Counted from the first letter of the stretch, positions 4,943 through 39,553 are shown. The stretch: 64,000 nt of DNA from GCF_054482595.1 NZ_CM137008.1; one strand, 5' to 3'. Translations and numbers: made by a program. Notes: generated by a model not told the origin, from the sequence alone.

Positions 4943-5200
4943 TCAATTATATTTTATAATTTGTTGTATTGCTGACTTTATATTGCCAATGACATCCTCA
5001 TCATTAAATTCATTTAATATATTTTTTAGAATAGGATGTAGTTTAATATCACCTAAAATACCTGCCAAAATAATAACTTCATCAAAAATTATGTTTTTTT
5101 GCAGTTCATAAATTATAGCAGTTATAACACGATTATCTTTTCTTTCTGCCAGTCCGCTTATAGCTTCAATTCTGGCACAATCATTCTTATCTGTCAGCAT
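4943..5200 (-). pseudogene. HEAT/ARM-like repeat ORF fragment abutting the ISAs1 element, possible remnant of an Rhs immunity gene
   Basis: 85-aa AT-rich ORF with HEAT-like periodicity (ARIEAISGLAERKDNRVITAIIYELQ...); starts 12 nt below the transposase stop in the same frame; too short to be a complete HEAT-repeat protein. Confidence 0.3.
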
Positions 5201-6490
5201 TCCAGGGCAAGATTACGAAAGCCCGCTCCCCGCAAGGACTGACGCCAGATAGTTTCTGTCCATGGCTGCTTTTCGCATCTTACGTCTTAACCCTGCCTTG
5301 AATACCTTATCATTCGTCAAAATATTAATAGCAATGTGCCGTATCCCTGAAAATAATTCTGCTGCATTTCCTCTTCTTATTTTGCAGTCGTCTTCATTCA
5401 TTACCACGTCCAGACGCCAGTGCAGCTTATTCTCCACGTGCCAGTGGTTTCGGATTGCTGTGGCGAACTTCTCTGCGGTTAAATCAGCAGAACTGATATA
5501 ATATCTGACCGTCATTTCTGGCTCTTTCTTTTGTTCTGCTATTATGGACCGAAAGGAGACTGCCACGCATAATTTCTTCAGCCCTTTCCATTCAAACGTG
5601 AAATCAATAAGTTCATCAGGGACATCGCAAACATTATGAAGACGGATCTCTTCTCTGCCGTGACTCTTTTCACTCATTGCGTAACTGTCATGCTCTGGAT
5701 TATTTAATTCTTTCAGTGGAAATTTTTCCTCAAAGGCTTTATTAAGCCGCCCCTGATTTCCTTTTACAGCGAATAAATAATCACCGCCCTGTTTTTGTAT
5801 CTTCTCTGCGATATCTTTCTGGCAACCCATCGCATCAGTTGTGATAATTTTTCCTTTAATATCCAGCATGTTAAGAAGTTCAGGGATAGCTGTAATCTCA
5901 TTAGATTTCTCATCCGTCTTGATCTGTCCGATGACCAGACTGTGCATTGTTGAGAACGCACTAATGACATGAATCGCTCCCCTGCGGCGACTCTTGTCAT
6001 AAGAGTGCCGGAGCGTTTTTCCATCAATTGCAATGACGTCTTTATCATCTGAAGAATGGCAGTCACGCATCCAGTTAATAAAGCACTCGTGAAATTTTGC
6101 AGGACTGATACAGGATACAACTCTGGCAATGGTATCGTGAACAGGAATACCATTTTCAAAATCACCATATTGCTTCAAAAAATCGAGATGTGTTTCCCCA
6201 AAATCCTCTATATCTTCCCAGCCTTCTGCACCAGAAATAACGGCACAAATAGTCAACAGTAGAATATCCGATAATTTATGCTCCACTTTCCAGGCTTGTC
6301 TGTAATCAGGGATAATAGAAATATGTTCCATCAATTTTTTAAGTTCCATTTTGTTCTCCTTAATTATGTAAGGAGTATTTGATCATGTATAAGCAATAAA
6401 AAACAGCTTCAGGTAATGAGGAATATCTCAATTTTTAAACATAAAATGCGAATTATTTAGTACAAAAAGTGAACTTCTGATGATCTTTCC
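5201..6490 (-). mobile_element. ISAs1-family insertion sequence (E. coli H-repeat/ISEc1-like); boundaries approximate
   Basis: Contains an intact 378-aa ISAs1 transposase ORF; the size expected for an H-repeat is about 1.3 kb. Terminal inverted repeats could not be fixed by eye; only a short shared gcggggag core was seen near both ends. Confidence 0.5.
5213..6349 (-). CDS. ISAs1-family transposase (H repeat-associated protein), full length
   Basis: 378-aa ORF recognised as the H-repeat-associated (YhhI/YdcC-type) transposase family; no frameshift or internal stop. Confidence 0.9.
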
Positions 6491-6987
6491 CTGTGATTGC
6501 TTCCCGTTTCCCGATACGGCGGCGCGGGGAGTCATAAAGGTAAGAAATTTCCAGCAGTACAGCGTCCTATTGTTCACGGCGGTAATGCACCAACCAGTAT
6601 TGGCTATCGTAGTGATAACCGTGTAACCTGCCGCCGCATCGCGTATCTAATGTTCATTCTTTTCCATAAACCGTCCGTACACATTGTGATAGTAAAAATA
6701 CAATACATCTTCGCTGATGCGGTTATTCTGCTGCATGTGGGGAGCGCCGAATACTGCTCCCGGTATGGCCAGTAATTACTATTTAGTACGACGTTAGGGG
6801 GAGTCACTTAATCTCACAGATACTTCAAGTAACAGATGAAAATCGCTCCTGAAATGAAAAAAGAAATTTTTTTGAATGTGTTCCTGTCAAATCAAGTGGT
6901 TTTTTCGTCGATATGTAGAGTCATATTGTACACAAAATTGTTACGAAACACACCTTGGTAAAATATTTGAATCGACTGTACAGTGGA

Positions 6988-7290
6988 TTATTTTGTGTGT
7001 ATTACATTCAACACTTGCCCATCTTTTTTCGCTATTAGTATTGTAAAATTTCCTCCTAAAGTCTTCGGTTGTTTTCCCTCGATTTTCCAACAATTATTGT
7101 CATCTGTAATACTATATGGTTTCTGAAATTCTGCTTTTTCTTTCCCGTATACATATTTAATGTAAACATATGATAATTCCAAAGCCATTTCACGACTATT
7201 TACTAAAATTTCCACTGGATTTTCTTTTCCAAATACTTGTTATGATATTGTAAACAATATCATAATAAGTAATATTAGTGAGTTTCTCAT
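6988..7290 (-). pseudogene. Small secreted-protein gene interrupted by an in-frame TAA at codon 17 (orphan immunity-like remnant?)
   Basis: ATG at 7290-7288 opens MRNSLILLIMILFTIS, then TAA at 7242-7240, then the same frame continues QVFGKENPVEILVNSREMALEL... to the stop at 6988. The ORF-track 75-aa ORF (6988..7215) is the in-frame downstream part, starting at a GTG. Confidence 0.4.
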
Positions 7291-7458
7291 GTTCTACACC
7301 TATCGAATCTCAAAAGCTGTGGGTAAAACATTACATTCAGAATATATGATATTCTTACCATCGGAATCCATTTTTCCAAATCGACCTTCTGGTGTACCTG
7401 GATATCCATTAAGAACATGTTTTTCCGAATGGTTAATTTATTCTCTCAGGAAGATGTT

Positions 7459-8028
7459 TTATTTTTCTTCACTACGAAGCAGTTCATGCTGTATTTTTGT
7501 TAAACATTCGTAAGACTCATCTTTGTTCGGGAGATGTGCTGTCATTCGAGCATAAGTTGGCTTCTCATCTTTAAAATATTTAACCATGATTGAATTATCA
7601 AGGACTGCCAACAACTGAGCTGGATCACTGCTCTTTTTTTGATAGATACCCGCTCTTATATAACTTCTAAACCGATCGCCGAGAAACGCCGTTTTTTCTG
7701 CTGTATTTATCAACTCCTGCAACGTTCCTTTGATGGCATGATTTTCATTAAGGCGTAGTGACCCGACACGAATTAAGAGTCTCGCCCCGCTTGATGTGAA
7801 TTTATTATTTTTACATGTACCCAGTTCTGTTTGCCAATAATACTCACCGATGTCCTCATTCTGATACCATCTCCACATGGCTTTATTATTTAAGACAGGA
7901 AACGCGGAAAAAATAGTACCCTTAGCGAAAATAGTAAAACAATCATGATCTTTAGCTTGTATTTCGCAATCAGCTATAACACCAAAATTAACAAATATCA
8001 TCAGCAAAAAGAACAAAACTCTTTTCAT
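7459..8028 (-). CDS. Putative Rhs immunity protein with N-terminal signal peptide (YbfC-like by length and position)
   Basis: 189-aa ORF whose start overlaps the rhs stop by 4 nt; N-terminus [19 protein letters not shown] resembles a Sec signal peptide; low GC like the rhs 3' end. Confidence 0.6.
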
Positions 8029-8549
8029 TTTCTTATTCCTCTCGATGTTCTCTGTTTCATTTTAGCTAAAATTTCACCCAAATCATCTATCCCTGCTGTT
8101 GCTGGCCCATCGGGTTTATTAATGTCTGGGAATAAATAGGGTTCTGCACAAGTATATCCTGGTGGTAATTGAGTTGTTGGCCAATTTGTCTGTGGCAGGT
8201 AATCACTTGCTGTCTTTGTATCCATCCCTGGATACTGGGGATCATCCTGTGGCGTACAAGTCAGATTTGGTTTTACCCACTTCCTGCAATACAGTGTGTA
8301 GTCGTAAGGGCTTAATGCTCTGAAGAATGTTTTGAAAACATTAGGCGCACTACTGGCCTGGTCAATAGGATATGGCAGTCTTAATTGTTTCGCTATGTCT
8401 GGCAATTTACTTGGATCGGGCGTAGGCGGTTTGTTGGGTCTCGCTCCATATCCGCCATTATTTAAGTGTCCATATTTTGATGCCAGTCCCATTGAATCTA
8501 TATACTGAACCGGATTCAACGGATACTGATAAAAATTCCATCCCCCCTT
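8025..8549 (-). other. Rhs C-terminal toxin domain (174 aa after DPIGL), family not recognised
   Basis: Sharp drop in GC below 8550; residues [43 protein letters not shown]...[17 protein letters not shown]...[11 protein letters not shown]...; three Cys and Pro-rich stretches. Confidence 0.6.
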
Positions 8550-11500
8550 CAGTCCAATCGGATCCTGAGTGATATACCTCCCCTGCAGCGGGTCATAATA
8601 GCGGTGGCGGTTGTAATACAGGCCGGACTCCTCATCATACTGCTGACCCGGCAGGCGGATGAGCTGCTGCAGCTGGTGCGGGTTCTCTTCATTCAGCTGG
8701 TTACCCCATTCATCGTATTCTGCGTACCACGCTGTTGTCCCTTCCGTGCTGATAAGCGCCAGCGGCAGGCCGCGATGGTCGCAGTGGTACAGGTGGATTT
8801 TTCGCGCCGGCGTGTACACCGGGTCCATCTGGTTTTGCATCTGCTTCACCGTCAGGCCGCACGATGCCAGCCAGCGGCGGCTTTCCTCACTCACCCGGTC
8901 AGCCAGGATTTCACTTTCCAGCCGGTCGAGCATCTGCACCAGCACCGGCGGGAACACCACACTGCCACCGTCTTCACCGCCGGACTGCTGAAGGGCATCC
9001 GCCAGGCTGCGGCGCTGCGTTCTGGCCAGTTCACCGGTGGCAGTTTCAACTCTGATGAGTGGTGTGAAGCTCCCCGGCTGATAAATCGTCTGGATGCGGG
9101 TTCTGTCGTTCTGTATCGTGGTCAGGCGGTCGCCATCCCAGCCGTACCAGGTCACTTGCGGTTTCCGTGACAGCGACATCCAGCCCGTCAGGTCCCGTTC
9201 ACGTCGCCATACCCGTTTTGCCACCCTGCGGCCCAGCGGGTCGTAAAGATAGCGGCTTTCGACCAGCGGCTCTGCATATTGTGTCCGCGTGTAGTGCACC
9301 AGCCGGTGCTGACTGTCGTAATGGTACCGGTGGGTGCGCTCATCATCCGTGCGGATAACCCCTTCCGGGATGAGGTCGGTTTTCTCTGTCAGTCTGCCGT
9401 GACGGTCATACCGGTAAAGATAGTGCGCGTCACGGGCGATACGGTTATCCGGCCACATGCTGAGGGTGCTGTCCGGGTGCAGCTCCGGGTCGGGCAGGCG
9501 GTTACCTGCCGGGTCCGTGGCATACGGGATGCGGATATCAAGGTTCGCTGCCGTGGTGTGAACGCCGGTCAGCCTGCCGGAGTCGCTGTAGCTGTAACTC
9601 CGGGTATGGCGCGGGCTGCTGATGCGGATGAGTTCGCCGTTGTCGTTCCAGGTGTAATCGCGGTCAGACTGCAGGCTGTTCAGGTGCTGGCTCTGTAACT
9701 GCCCGGCAGGGGTATAAGCGGTGGTGAGTTCATAATGGCCGAAGCTGCGCAGCGTTTCCCGGTGCAGGCGGTCGCGGGTGAAATCCACCAGCGGTGTGTC
9801 GCCGAGCTTCATGCCTGACAGCCAGCCGCTGCCGTAGGTCAGCCATTCCACGGCGGGCAGGCTGTCCGGTATACAGCGGTTCGCCAGCCCCTGCGCGTTG
9901 TAAGCGTGTCTGGTCTCATGCTGCCAGAGCAGTGCTTCCGTCTGCGGGTGATGCACCGTCTGACGCTCACCGGTCAGGCGGCCTTTCTCATCATACCTGT
10001 AATGCACCGCTACCCGGTGCCCTTCGCTGATATGGCTGATGTCTGTCAGCCAGCCACGTTCGTCATACCGCCACCGCTCTGCGGTTTCACCCTTCACGGT
10101 GCGGTGCGTGAGGCGGTCTGCTTCGTCATAGTGCCAGTGGGTGACCAGACCCTCATCCTCGCTGCGGATAAGTTTGCCGGTCAGGTCGTGGTGATAATGC
10201 TGTGTGCGGCCGTCAAAGCCGGTTTCCTGTATCAGCCGGTCGAGTACATCGTAACGGAAGGTGGTGTGGCTGCCGTTTTCACTGGTCAGGCGGATGACCC
10301 GTCCGGCAGCATCGTATTCCATACTGCGCGTCAGACCGCCCTGCGTGGTACGGATGGCCTTTCCCCACGCATCGTACTGTGTCCCGTTTCTGCTGCCGTC
10401 CGGAGCAATGACGGCGGTCAGGTCACCGGCGGCGTTGTATTCATACCGCATTTCATGGCCCTGCATGTCTTTCACGGCAATTAACCGTCCACGGCTGTCG
10501 TATGCGCGGTACTGACTCAGCCCTTCCTCGCGGTGCACCGCCGTCATCTGCCCGAAACGGTCATGGTCATAACGGGTTACATAACCGGAACAGTCGGTGA
10601 AGCTCAGCAACTGGCCGTAACGGCTCCACGTCATGGTTTTCCGGCTGCCGGTGGCATCGTCCGTTGCGCAGGGTAAGTCACTGTGTGGATTATCATAACG
10701 GTAGCGGGTGATATCGCCGTCAGGGGCGGTTTCCTGAATCAGACGGCCGGATTCATCATATTCCCGGCGCATTTCCAGCCCGTCAGGCCCGGTGGCTGAC
10801 GTTAACTGGCTGTGGTGGTTATAGTAAAATGCCGATGCCCTGCCATCCGGTGTGGTGATGCGCGTGATGAGTCCCGTCACCACATCCGGGCTGTATTCTG
10901 TTGTCCGGCCTGCGGCATCCGTCTGTGCCTTAAGCCTGCCCACCGCATCAAACTGACTCTGCGTGACGCTGCCGTCCGCGTGTTCCTTTTTCACCACCCG
11001 CTTCAGCCCGCCTTCGCCCTGCGTGTGCAGCACTTCACGGCGGTCCAGGCTGTCGGTGATGGTGATGCGGTTTTGCTCATAACAGTAGGTGTAGCTTAAG
11101 CCCGCCGGGTTAAGCTGCTCTGTCACCCGCCCGTCGCTGTCGTAACGGTAACGGATTTCCGGTCGGCCCGTGTGACGGTGCGCCACCATCCGGCCCCGGT
11201 ATTTATCATCGTAAGTAAAGCTGCGCACCTGTGTATTGCTGCGGTCATACACCGCCGCCAGTTCGCCGCGTGGCGTCCAGCCATAGCGCACCAGCGGCGC
11301 GGCTGGCAGGTTGTCCGGGTATTCCGGGTCGTGCGTCAGCCACACGGCAGACAGACGGATGCCGTTGTCCCGGCCATATTCGGTGTAACCCGGCAGGGTA
11401 TCAGGAAAAGCGGACGGTTCCGTCCCGCCGGAAGAGGCCTGCTGCCGGGCTTCTTCTGCCCGCTGCGCCTGCGTGGTCAGTACCAGCCGGAAGTGACGCC

Positions 11501-12224
11501 CGGCACCATCCGTCACGCCGGTGATTTCGCCGCTGAATTCACCGGCGGCTTCGCGGTGGAACGTCTGTGTGCGCCCGAAGCGGTCCACCAGCCCGGTCAG
11601 TACCCGGTACGGCGGCAGCGGCGCAGGCAGCACCTCATCCGCTTCCGGCACCCGCTCACACCAGCCGAGCAGCCACCACGGCCCCTGCGGACTGTTTGTC
11701 GCCAGATAACGATGCGGACTTAAGCGGAGTTCTTCCGGCAGCGCCTGCCAGAGTGCGGCCAGCCGGTGACCTTCATCCAGTTTCGCCACGCCGCCGCGCA
11801 CCAGCCACAGTGACTCGCTGCGGCTGTAACCGTCCTCACCGGGAAACAGGTGCTCAAAATACAGGCTTCTGCCGCCGTTATCACTGAGTATCAGTGTGTT
11901 ATCGCGCAGCTGTAAGCGGATATCCGCAGGCATTTTCCAGCCGGGGCCGAGGCTCCCCACCGGCGCGGGCGTTTTTGTCCGGTAACTGCTGTAGGTGCGG
12001 GAGAGAATGAACGGCAGCGGGGCGGGCAGGGCGATGTCGGTTTCACCGGGAAGGACCTTTGCACCGAGCAGCGGATTGACCGGATGGCCGGACGTCACCC
12101 CGCCGGGGCACACCGAACAGGCCACGCCGGTGGGGGCACCAATACGTACCCCGGCTGAACCCTGGACAATGCTACCGCCATACTGCGTCATGTCGCCCTG
12201 ACGCGCCGCCGGTTTTCCGCTCAT
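8025..12224 (-). CDS. rhsC: Rhs family protein (RhsC by position next to ybfA-kdp) with variable C-terminal toxin domain
   Basis: 1399-aa ORF; N-terminal region with CSVCPGG motif, long YD-repeat core, and DPIGL core-end motif encoded at 8550-8564, followed by a 174-aa C-terminal domain. Confidence 0.9.
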
Positions 12225-12417
12225 CTGCTCATCCTTGTATTATCGGGTTATTTGTCCGCTGACAGGCAAAACCCTACAGATTTATAAGAAAGCCTTAAGT
12301 GAGATATCCGTCAGATAGAAACAATTAGGAAAATATTTATATATATTTCATGAATATATGTTTCGATTGGTATAACGGTGTCTAAATATTCCTCTGAACA
12401 TCTTCCTGATACAAAAA

Positions 12418-12447
12418 ACCGCCAGCGTTTCCGCTGGCGGTTTTCAA
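12418..12447 (-). terminator. Rho-independent terminator downstream of ybfA
   Basis: Minus strand reads ccgccagcg gaaa cgctggcgg followed by a T6 run. Confidence 0.7.
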
Positions 12448-12466
12448 TGTATTCAGAACTCAGCAA

Positions 12467-12673
12467 TCAATAAAAATCACCGGTTGCCTTTTCGGCCTGA
12501 TCCATCCACACCGGTTTATCGCTGGTTTTCGACCAGACGCGATGCAGGTAGCTGTAAAAGCGGGCGCGGTCTTTCCAGAAAAGCATGAAAGGCAGCGCCA
12601 GAACGCCCGCTGCAACCGCATAAGTACGGCGTAAAAAGATAAGCCATGCTGGATATTCTCTGTAGAGTTCCAT
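12467..12673 (-). CDS. ybfA: Small membrane protein YbfA (DUF2517)
   Basis: 68-aa ORF recognised as YbfA; divergent from the kdp operon. Confidence 0.85.
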
Positions 12674-12881
12674 ACTTTTCTCCCCCTTTTGTATCTACCC
12701 GGTGAATGGCACCGGAAAATGAATTTGTTTATCTGATGAAAATAGTACCGCCTTTTGTGTAATTTTACTACTCATCCGACCACTTATTTTTGCTTATTGA
12801 TGGTTTATTTACATTCACCCTGTAATTAAGTTACACAAAAGTTAAATTAATACTAAACATTAGTTAAATCATGGCTTTTGC

Positions 12882-12908
12882 CATTTTTATACTTTTTTTA
12901 CACCCCGT
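12882..12908 (+). promoter_or_regulatory. KdpE operator / kdpFABC promoter region
   Basis: catttttatactttttttacaccccg, the T-rich KdpE-binding sequence, about 80 nt upstream of kdpF. Confidence 0.6.
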
Positions 12909-12984
12909 CCGCAGATTTTTGCGAAATCTTTGCAGCCAGAATTCTACCCTTCCGGTATCACTTTTAGGCCACTGGAGGTGCACT

Positions 12985-13074
12985 GTGAGTGCAGGCGTGA
13001 TAACCGGCGTATTGCTGGTGTTTTTATTACTGGGTTATCTGGTTTATGCCCTGATCAATGCGGAGGCGTTCTGA
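12985..13074 (+). CDS. kdpF: K+-transporting ATPase subunit F
   Basis: GTG start after ggagg; encodes (M)[28 protein letters not shown] (29 aa); its stop overlaps the kdpA ATG. Confidence 0.85.
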
Positions 13075-20750: not shown

Positions 20751-20760
20751 GGGCTGAATT

Positions 20761-20858
<98 letters not shown>

Positions 20859-28162: not shown

Positions 28163-28180
28163 ATTGTTTGCATGTCTCTT

Positions 28181-28341
28181 GCCGGATGCGGCGTGAACGC
28201 CTTATCCGGCCTACAAAAGCACGCAAACTCAATATATTGCAGAGATCATGTAGGCCTGATAAGCGTAGCGCATCAGGCAATTTAGCGTTTGAAACTGTTT
28301 GTCTGTTCCTTGCCGGATGCGACGTAAACGCCCCATCCGGC
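28181..28341. repeat. REP/BIME cluster (three REP copies) between chiP upstream region and glnS
   Basis: gccggatgcggcgtgaacgccttatccggcctac, caggcctgataagcgtagcgcatcagg, gccggatgcgacgtaaacgccccatccggc. Confidence 0.8.
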
Positions 28342-38802: not shown

Positions 38803-38842
38803 GCGCCCCGCAACGCCGATAAGGTATCGCGAAAAAAAAGAT

Positions 38843-38919
38843 GGCTACGTAGCTCAGTTGGTTAGAGCACATCACTCATAATGATGGGGTCACAGGTTCG
38901 AATCCCGTCGTAGCCACCA
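38843..38919 (+). tRNA. metT: tRNA-Met (elongator, anticodon CAU)
   Basis: ggctacgtagctcagttggttagagcacatcactCATaatgatggggtcacaggttcgaatcccgtcgtagccacca; cloverleaf, CCA end. Confidence 0.93.
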
Positions 38920-38927
38920 TCTTTTTT

Positions 38928-39012
38928 GCGGGAGTGGCGAAATTGGTAGACGCACCAGATTTAGGTTCTGGCGCCGCAAGGTGTGCGAGTTCAAGTCTCG
39001 CCTCCCGCACCA
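38928..39012 (+). tRNA. leuW: tRNA-Leu (anticodon UAG), long variable arm
   Basis: gcgggagtggcgaaattggtagacgcaccagattTAGgttctgg...ctcccgcacca. Confidence 0.9.
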
Positions 39013-39035
39013 TTCACCAGAAAGCGTTGTACGGA

Positions 39036-39110
39036 TGGGGTATCGCCAAGCGGTAAGGCACCGGTTTTTGATACCGGCATTCCCTGGTTCGAATCCAGGT
39101 ACCCCAGCCA
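39036..39110 (+). tRNA. glnU: tRNA-Gln (anticodon UUG)
   Basis: tggggtatcgccaagcggtaaggcaccggtttTTGataccgg...accccagcca. Confidence 0.9.
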
Positions 39111-39144
39111 TCTTCTTCGAGTAAGCGGTTCACCGCCCGGTTAT

Positions 39145-39219
39145 TGGGGTATCGCCAAGCGGTAAGGCACCGGTTTTTGATACCGGCATTCCCTGGTTCG
39201 AATCCAGGTACCCCAGCCA
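39145..39219 (+). tRNA. glnW: tRNA-Gln (anticodon UUG), duplicate copy
   Basis: Same sequence as the preceding tRNA-Gln(UUG). Confidence 0.9.
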
Positions 39220-39234
39220 TCGAAGAAACAATCT

Positions 39235-39311
39235 GGCTACGTAGCTCAGTTGGTTAGAGCACATCACTCATAATGATGGGGTCACAGGTTCGAATCCCGT
39301 CGTAGCCACCA
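39235..39311 (+). tRNA. metU: tRNA-Met (elongator, CAU), duplicate copy
   Basis: Identical to the metT copy. Confidence 0.9.
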
Positions 39312-39359
39312 AATTCTGAATGTGTCGAATACGTTCGGCAAATTCAAAAACCAATTTGT

Positions 39360-39434
39360 TGGGGTATCGCCAAGCGGTAAGGCACCGGATTCTGATTCCG
39401 GCATTCCGAGGTTCGAATCCTCGTACCCCAGCCA
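39360..39434 (+). tRNA. glnV: tRNA-Gln (anticodon CUG, wild-type)
   Basis: ...caccggattCTGattccgg...; anticodon CUG, so not a supE allele. Confidence 0.9.
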
Positions 39435-39471
39435 ATTTATTCAAGACGCTTACATCGTAAGTGCGCCCAGT

Positions 39472-39546
39472 TGGGGTATCGCCAAGCGGTAAGGCACCGG
39501 ATTCTGATTCCGGCATTCCGAGGTTCGAATCCTCGTACCCCAGCCA
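39472..39546 (+). tRNA. glnX: tRNA-Gln (anticodon CUG), duplicate copy
   Basis: Same sequence as the glnV copy. Confidence 0.9.
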
Positions 39547-39553
39547 CATTAAA

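Follow-up and report, generated by a model that had tools for sequence, protein, structure and literature searches.

In Escherichia coli, rhsA, rhsB, rhsC and rhsD lie outside the vgrG islands and have been termed 'orphan', whereas other rhs genes follow vgrG in type VI secretion system (T6SS) clusters of the T6SS-2 type and in auxiliary islands (PMC7216683). The closest relative of known structure of the Rhs protein considered here, Tse5 of Pseudomonas aeruginosa, is cleaved at K47|P48, and residues 30-47 remain anchored inside the shell through a plug (PMC10684867). The resulting 47-residue, 5-kDa N-terminal fragment has been described as a cryptic PAAR-like element that Tse5 requires for its secretion with VgrG1c (PMC10684867, PMC9637101, PMC7376260). 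Another class of effectors carries prePAAR motifs together with transmembrane segments and is served by chaperones of the Eag (DUF1795) family (PMC7773334, PMC8636562). Here, we analysed a 64,000-nucleotide stretch of NZ_CM137008.1 (assembly GCF_054482595.1; hereafter the window), whose Rhs locus is the E. coli rhsC element, an 'orphan' Rhs toxin locus. The window is collinear throughout with positions 3296927-3360926 of E. coli XH990 (NZ_CP019359.1; 15 mismatches, 0 gaps), and both XH990 and a second strain, THO-010, share 99.98% identity with it.

We consider it likely that the rhs gene at this locus encodes a polymorphic toxin that is mounted on a T6SS spike, i.e., a short-N-terminus, Tse5-like effector encoded at an orphan site. 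In the mechanism that we propose, the single PAAR-type repeat of a 47-residue N-terminal fragment would dock on the tip of a trimer formed by a VgrG from another locus, residues 30-47 would keep the fragment fastened in the shell by way of the DUF6531 plug, and the YD-repeat cocoon would enclose a 152-residue C-terminal tip, to be released by aspartyl autoproteolysis after IDSMGL. YbfC, probably a periplasmic protein, would protect sibling cells. No Eag chaperone would be needed for an N-terminus without a transmembrane segment, and the carriers in the closest genomes would be two VgrGs, one from a T6SS-2-type cluster at aspV and one from an island at the rhsE locus.

An intact Rhs protein with a Tse5-like architecture

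The rhs gene and the parts of its product were delimited as follows:

8025-12224, minus strand: rhs gene of the rhsC locus, an intact open reading frame (ORF) of 1399 residues (ORF list and translation)
12138-12215, minus strand: single PAAR-like repeat, residues 4-29 (KPAARQGD...VRIG; sub-threshold PAAR profile matches)
12084-12137, minus strand: anchor segment, residues 30-47, holding CSVCPGG (by homology to the Tse5 structure)
11856-12089, minus strand: N-terminal plug (DUF6531), residues 46-123 (Pfam PF20148, E 2.8e-17; homologous to Tse5 plug residues 48-124)
8484-11855, minus strand: YD-repeat shell and RHS-associated core, residues 124-1247, with the end DPIGL...IDSMGL (Pfam, NCBIfam)
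8028-8483, minus strand: variable C-terminal toxin tip, residues 1248-1399 (drop in GC content; no Pfam family)

YD/RHS repeats form the core of the protein and place it among the Rhs/YD-repeat polymorphic toxins. Residues 1-1247 match the NCBIfam RHS_core equivalog with 2637 bits against a cut-off of 2000, and Pfam identifies 11 copies of RHS_repeat (E 1.8e-68), DUF6531 and an RHS domain at residues 1143-1179, while Rhs_assc_core covers residues 1170-1247. The RHS-associated core contains the PxxxxDPxGL motif, with Ser in place of Pro in the last copy, and is followed by a variable tip and a downstream putative immunity gene. GC content falls from 0.58-0.65 over the core to 0.42 at the tip. 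Among proteins of the PDB, the best relative is Tse5 (8cp6; E 5e-126 over the shell), and in the alignment to its shell chain (8cp6_B), which itself begins at P48, this proline is the first aligned residue of both proteins. By analogy with Tse5, N-terminal autocleavage is predicted between H47 and P48.

The first-pass annotation of this DNA had extended the gene to position 12466. The ORF ends at 12224, and the extra 242 nucleotides (nt) are non-coding DNA reaching up to ybfA. In this leader, a Shine-Dalgarno sequence (AAGGA) stands ahead of the rhs ATG, and an in-frame stop 5 codons before this ATG rules out a further extension of the gene in the 5' direction.

The N-terminus carries one PAAR repeat and an anchor

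Profiles of the PAAR domain match residues 2-29 only, covering just the last repeat of the profile, and do so below threshold (16-18 bits for Pfam PF05488, where the cut-off is 27; 17 bits for NCBIfam NF033420, where it is 124). Three PAAR repeats build the cone of a canonical PAAR domain; the window Rhs has one, at residues 4-29. A hidden longer N-terminus holding additional PAAR repeats 5' of the ATG was considered and is ruled out by the in-frame stop 5 codons upstream.

Searching residues 1-145 against 1.84 billion representative sequences with HMMER returned 506 relatives. Among the homologues that start with Met and possess the PVNP site (n=219, both searches), the N-terminal fragment is 30-59 residues long and has one repeat in 209, and it measures 90-108 residues in 7, 6 of which carry three PAAR repeats. 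Scores of 66-142 bits to Pfam PAAR_motif were obtained for the three-repeat relatives that were scanned (n=3). When both forms are aligned together, the short ones pair with the third repeat of the three-repeat relatives, and the homology continues unbroken downstream. Across 44 homologues, no variation is seen at R8, D11, G22, V26, G29, P48, V49 and P51, and almost none at C36 and C39. Judged from these alignments, the N-terminus is the last third of a PAAR domain, that is, one repeat, and not a full PAAR domain. Its layout is that of Tse5, an N-terminal fragment of ~47 residues ending at a Pro-Val-Asn-Pro site and followed by the DUF6531 plug. The motif CSVCPGG (residues 36-42; window 12099-12119), which had initially been described as a PAAR-like Cys-rich motif, occurs in short and long forms of the family alike and belongs to the anchor segment that follows; the PAAR-like part is confined to residues 4-29.

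The same N-terminus bears on the question of a chaperone. Within the first 300 residues no transmembrane-like segment was found (maximum 19-residue Kyte-Doolittle mean, 1.03), the prePAAR motif AARxxDxxxH is incomplete, with Tyr at the His position, and Pfam prePAAR_I gives no match to the N-terminus at E values up to 10. A DUF1795 (Eag) gene adjoins neither this rhs gene nor the vgrG-linked paralogues described below, and none is present in the window. As the N-terminus has neither a transmembrane segment nor a prePAAR motif, one would not expect Rhs proteins of this class to use an Eag chaperone. The earlier remark that no EagR-type chaperone or adaptor is adjacent is therefore right as a description, but this absence is unsurprising and presents no puzzle.

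T6SS genes are absent from the window and present in near-identical genomes

The window lacks T6SS delivery genes around rhs, as the first-pass annotation had stated and as both annotation and similarity searches bear out. PGAP annotation of the collinear XH990 stretch contains housekeeping genes only and no T6SS gene. A tblastn search of the 64-kb window with 16 T6SS core and accessory proteins and two VgrGs gave a best E value of 0.18, and the sole PAAR-related signal that tblastn detected in the window was the Rhs N-terminus itself. Pfam scans of the small unannotated ORFs around the locus found no DUF1795, PAAR, VgrG or Hcp match. The gene is not directly downstream of vgrG or hcp-vgrG; its upstream neighbour is ybfA, followed by the likely ybfA terminator. 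Because XH990 has the rhs core at 6 places and only two copies of vgrG, the lack of vgrG beside this rhs is not statistically remarkable, and most rhs loci in such genomes are not linked to vgrG. For rhsA-D of E. coli, an orphan arrangement is the usual one and has already been described (PMC7216683).

The first-pass annotation had also proposed that export would depend on T6SS loci elsewhere in the genome, and the presence of such loci in the near-identical genomes supports this inference. In XH990, a T6SS-2-type cluster occupies the aspV site, ~555 kb from rhsC, in the order hcp-vgrG-rhs-Sel1, tssB, tssC, tssE, tssF, tssG, tagH, tssJ, tssK, tssL, tssH, vasI, tssA, tssM, vasL, hcp, and THO-010 carries the same cluster. 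An hcp-vgrG-rhs layout of T6SS-2 has been described for enterohaemorrhagic E. coli (EHEC) (PMC7216683). The rhsE locus of XH990, between yncH and pptA, contains a second vgrG, directly followed by a gene for a 1401-residue Rhs protein and then by a small ORF (immunity). This minimal vgrG-rhs-immunity island (2508011-2514392 of the XH990 record) contains neither hcp nor a chaperone gene. The gaps between vgrG and rhs at the aspV and rhsE sites measure 76 and 68 nt, respectively, with no ORF between, and the small ORFs of the aspV cluster encode no PAAR, DUF4150, DUF1795, DUF4123 or DUF2169 protein. The cluster and the island are there in the relatives, but an adaptor specific for the Rhs N-terminus, which the first-pass annotation had coupled to such loci, is found at neither site. 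The metV and entD-cus-ompT regions of XH990 revealed no further T6SS or vgrG island.

Both vgrG-linked Rhs paralogues share the N-terminal module of the window Rhs. The rhsE-locus protein is identical to it at 27 of 29 positions in the repeat and at 41 of 47 over the N-terminal fragment, compared with 23/29 and 35/50, respectively, for the aspV-linked protein. The two VgrGs of XH990 are 90% identical and differ mainly in their last ~25 residues, and in 3 VgrG-Rhs pairs the type of VgrG tail co-varies with the type of Rhs N-terminus. The rhsE-locus VgrG appears to be the better candidate carrier than the aspV VgrG, because its own Rhs has a near-identical N-terminal repeat; this preference rests on the three pairs. 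Both arrangements recur among distant short-form relatives, with P0142 and P0176 directly behind vgrG and P0155 and P0211 orphan, without vgrG within 6 kb.

The rhsC locus and displacement of the toxin tip

The features that surround the rhs gene are the following:

12467-12673, minus strand: ybfA (DUF2517), the upstream neighbour (Pfam PF10725, E 2.9e-34; PGAP)
12225-12466, minus strand: non-coding leader between ybfA and rhs (sequence read directly)
7459-8028, minus strand: ybfC, candidate cognate immunity gene, 189 residues, overlapping the rhs stop by 4 nt
7216-7458, minus strand: displaced toxin-tip remnant of 243 bp (minus-strand frame 0 reads ...NGYPGTPEGRFGKMDSDGKNIIYSECNVLPTAFEIR*)
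6988-7215, minus strand: Imm-NTF2-2 orphan immunity gene, 75 residues (Pfam PF15631, E 9e-21; PGAP 'NTF2 fold immunity protein')
5213-6349, minus strand: transposase of ISEc1 (ISAs1 family, 'H-repeat'), which closes the Rhs element (Pfam DDE_Tnp_1_assoc and DDE_Tnp_1; PGAP)

These features agree with the initial description of a gene bordered by ybfA and kdp upstream and by immunity and insertion sequence (IS) genes downstream: ybfA and kdpFABCDE are found on one side, and ybfC, Imm-NTF2-2 and ISEc1 on the other. The synteny kdp-ybfA-rhs-...-H-repeat IS-ybgA-phr is collinear with 727.5-742.5 kb of the K-12 chromosome, except for the tip modules, and with XH990. Over the whole window, the gene order is pxp/ybgI, the rhsC locus, kdpFABCDE, pgm, nag, the metT-leuW-glnUW-metU-glnVX tRNA cluster, glt and leuS-holA.

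In the Rhs core, 1198 of 1247 residues (96%) are identical to K-12 RhsC, and the two N-termini are identical over residues 1-66. The tip (residues 1248-1399) is instead that of the K-12 pseudogene ybfO (151/152 identical), and YbfC matches K-12 YbfC, which follows ybfO, at 183 of 189 positions; K-12's own RhsC tip and ybfB are absent from the window locus. By this comparison, the difference from K-12 is a classical whole-module displacement of the C-terminal tip between strains.

The tip and YbfC belong to no family in Pfam, NCBIfam or PADLOC, and homologues of the tip were found in Enterobacteriaceae only. The tip is rich in Cys and Pro. Its AlphaFold2 (AF2) model, built from 15 sequences, has a predicted local distance difference test score (pLDDT) of 38.7 and is unusable for a fold search. 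YbfC is a candidate cognate immunity protein of the tip, because a YbfC homologue (65% identical) follows a tip homologue in another taxon, on the unrelated contig L021. The N-terminus of YbfC resembles a Sec signal peptide placed ahead of DCE, which hints that the toxin tip may act in the periplasm. The remnant at 7216-7458 gives a weak match to DUF4329 (E 0.11) and is possibly the C-terminus of a DUF4329 tip. In a Phytobacter locus (L023), a DUF4329 tip with Imm-NTF2-2 forms the main module and a ybfO-type tip is the orphan, the reverse of the order in the window.

Within the rhs core, 8 of the 15 mismatches to XH990 fall close together, inside 172 bp at 9978-10149. This patch is 99.1% identical to rhsB/rhsC alleles of other strains, compared with 97.7% to the rhsC of XH990, which suggests gene conversion between rhs copies or alleles. 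The two vgrG-linked paralogues were rejected as its source, as they are only 75-81% identical there.

Directly after ybfA, at ~12410-12443, a GC-rich hairpin is followed by a T-run (aaaaccgccagcggaaacgctggcggtttttt), and the leader beyond the hairpin is AT-rich. The hairpin is likely an intrinsic terminator that separates ybfA from rhs. A consensus scan detected no promoter-like site in the leader; over 6300-13000, the consensus promoter/terminator scan gave results no different from shuffled sequences and is weak evidence. Elsewhere in the window, an 85-residue ORF at 4943-5200, next to ISEc1, is a hypothetical gene in the XH990 annotation and matches nothing in Pfam or PADLOC. Two intergenic copies of a 100-bp sequence, at 20759-20857 (after kdpE) and 28179-28277 (near chiP-glnS), are 87% identical to each other and are probably repeats of the repetitive extragenic palindromic/bacterial interspersed mosaic element (REP/BIME) type. 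A tRNA cluster at 38830-39550 comprises seven genes (Met, Leu, Gln, Gln, Met, Gln, Gln) and contains internal repeats, according to the annotation of the collinear XH990 stretch.

State of the T6SS and alternative explanations

In XH990, tssH, which encodes ClpV, contains a TAG at codon 273 of 912, within GASVKG*FEKRF. A sequencing error was considered and rejected as its source: the same pseudogene is found in THO-010, and the aspV cluster DNA of 88COLEC and W619 gives a perfect-match score to that of XH990. Judged from these assemblies, the stop is a real mutation of the lineage. In Res13-Sevr-PER07-33, a strain with the same rhsC arrangement at 98.7% identity, tssH is intact. A 'frameshift' flag on vasL is common to XH990, THO-010 and Res13-Sevr-PER07-33. 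Because tssH carries a nonsense codon, export may be disabled, and delivery of the Rhs protein in the XH990-like lineage is probably weak or switched off at present. In other species, the T6SS fires less when ClpV is lost, although firing is not always abolished.

Several points weigh against a spike-mounted effector. We found no experiment in the literature on T6SS-dependent delivery of an orphan of the E. coli rhsA-D type. K-12 is reported to have no T6SS (PMC6730261), and because it keeps the identical N-terminus, retention of the module requires no working system. One PAAR repeat is not enough to make up the three-fold PAAR cone on its own, which weakens the docking model, and the AF2 model of residues 1-145 (44-sequence alignment), with a mean pLDDT of 59 and values below 50 over residues 1-50, is of too low confidence for a fold search. 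Finally, the T6SS content of the window's own genome is extrapolated from relatives, of which the best match has 15 mismatches, and the inspected part of XH990 amounts to ~360 kb of a 4.88-Mb chromosome, beyond which other adaptors or T6SS clusters are possible.

The strongest competing account is that the locus is currently no exported weapon in this lineage and persists as a store of immunity genes (ybfC, Imm-NTF2-2) and as a recombination reservoir of tips. The nonsense codon at position 273 of tssH is common to independent assemblies of the closest genomes, Rhs genes are usually silent, and K-12 retains the same N-terminus along with four to five rhs genes in the absence of a T6SS (PMC6730261). 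The orphan immunity gene and toxin remnant downstream, the displacement of the tip as a whole module relative to K-12, the mosaic patch inside the core and a leader in which no promoter-like site was found all fit such a reservoir. However, the 1399-codon ORF, the autocleavage motifs and the immunity gene are all intact, and the promoter scan counts for little. The tssH mutation is moreover recent and lineage-specific, as the intact gene of Res13-Sevr-PER07-33 illustrates, and firing of the T6SS can survive the loss of ClpV in other species. We regard this account as rather unlikely.

Under the preferred reading of a spike-mounted effector, the one-repeat N-terminus, which is the dominant form in this Rhs family, might dock on VgrG in a manner unlike that of a canonical PAAR domain, an idea to which we assign a low probability. 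In one possible mode, three Rhs cocoons would sit on each VgrG trimer, each giving one repeat of the cone; three Rhs proteins per spike have been reported for natural VgrG-Rhs fusions (bioRxiv 10.1101/2024.02.26.582050). In another, spikes would be mixed, and orphan and vgrG-linked Rhs paralogues with near-identical repeats would co-assemble or compete. If docking of this kind were true, a single spike could be loaded with several different toxins by means of orphan loci such as rhsC.

Another alternative is that export requires an adaptor or chaperone dedicated to this N-terminus (Eag/DUF1795, DUF4123, DUF2169 or similar), with its gene at a third, unlinked site. Many Rhs effectors need Eag chaperones (PMC4524185, PMC7773334, PMC8636562), an eagR gene adjoins one vgrG-rhs island of EHEC (PMC7216683), and the share of XH990 that was inspected leaves room for such a gene. 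Yet Eag chaperones shield N-terminal transmembrane segments, and the window Rhs has neither these nor the prePAAR histidine. Paralogues and distant relatives with the same N-terminus stand directly behind vgrG with no gene between, and rhs genes next to eagR are phylogenetically distinct from the orphans, as PMC7216683 reports in citing Ma et al. 2017. Such an adaptor is very improbable. Export or display by a T6SS-independent route, or activity inside the producing cell, is the least probable of the alternatives and close to negligible: rhs genes with this exact N-terminus do persist in the T6SS-less K-12 (PMC6730261), and YD-repeat toxins elsewhere use other routes, with Tc toxins and teneurin-like proteins among the PDB relatives, but the protein starts with neither a signal peptide nor another secretion-associated domain, its N-terminus shares homology with a PAAR repeat and with the VgrG-dependent Tse5, and its same-module paralogues are linked to vgrG.

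Comparison with known systems

Little of this is new, as the rhsA-D orphans of E. coli have been known since the first mapping of Rhs elements and their non-linkage to vgrG has been discussed in the T6SS literature (PMC7216683). The useful outcome lies in the corrections, namely the gene boundaries, the one-repeat PAAR, the placement of CSVCPGG in the anchor and the expectation of no Eag chaperone. To these is added the finding of a T6SS, and of two vgrG-rhs islands with this N-terminal module, in near-identical genomes, together with a nonsense mutation in the gene for ClpV. Which VgrG loads an orphan Rhs, and how one third of a PAAR domain docks, are recognised questions that the window does not raise anew.

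The closest counterpart of the locus as a whole is the K-12 RhsC element (ybfA-rhsC-ybfB-ybfO-ybfC-ybfQ-ybfL-ybfD), with which it shares the site, the synteny, ybfC and the ISAs1/H-repeat. It differs in that the main gene of the window carries the tip that survives in K-12 only as the displaced pseudogene ybfO, and in having the Imm-NTF2-2 orphan immunity gene instead of the K-12 RhsC tip and ybfB. In EHEC and Shiga toxin-producing E. coli (STEC), orphan rhsA-D are set apart from vgrG-linked rhs genes (Z0268 'paar', rhsE, rhsF) by the same distinction as here (PMC7216683). That study calls the N-terminus a 'PAAR domain', whereas here it comprises one repeat only, and the XH990-like lineage adds the nonsense mutation in tssH.

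The effectors of the prePAAR/Eag class (S. marcescens Rhs1/2, P. protegens RhsA, P. laumondii Rhs1 and E. cloacae RhsA) have the same cocoon and share autocleavage at the N- and C-terminal ends and mounting on the spike through the N-terminus (PMC8636562, PMC8765631, PMC4524185). Their N-termini of 250-350 residues combine prePAAR, transmembrane and PAAR elements and are accompanied by an adjacent DUF1795 gene, in contrast to the 47 residues of the window Rhs, which lacks a transmembrane segment, the prePAAR histidine and a chaperone gene.

In Tse5 (PA2684; 8cp6), the resemblance extends through most of the protein. Both proteins have a 47-residue N-terminal fragment, a Pro48 site within PVNPxLGxK, a DUF6531-type plug, a YD shell and a C-terminal protease motif DPxG...DPxG, and neither has a transmembrane segment in the N-terminal fragment or an Eag chaperone. 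The literal P-A-A-R signature is missing from the N-terminal fragment of Tse5 (PMC9637101) but present in the window Rhs. The tips are unrelated, that of Tse5 being a pore former and that of the window Rhs uncharacterised. Tse5 is encoded next to the spike gene vgrG1c, unlike the rhs gene of the window, which is not linked to vgrG.

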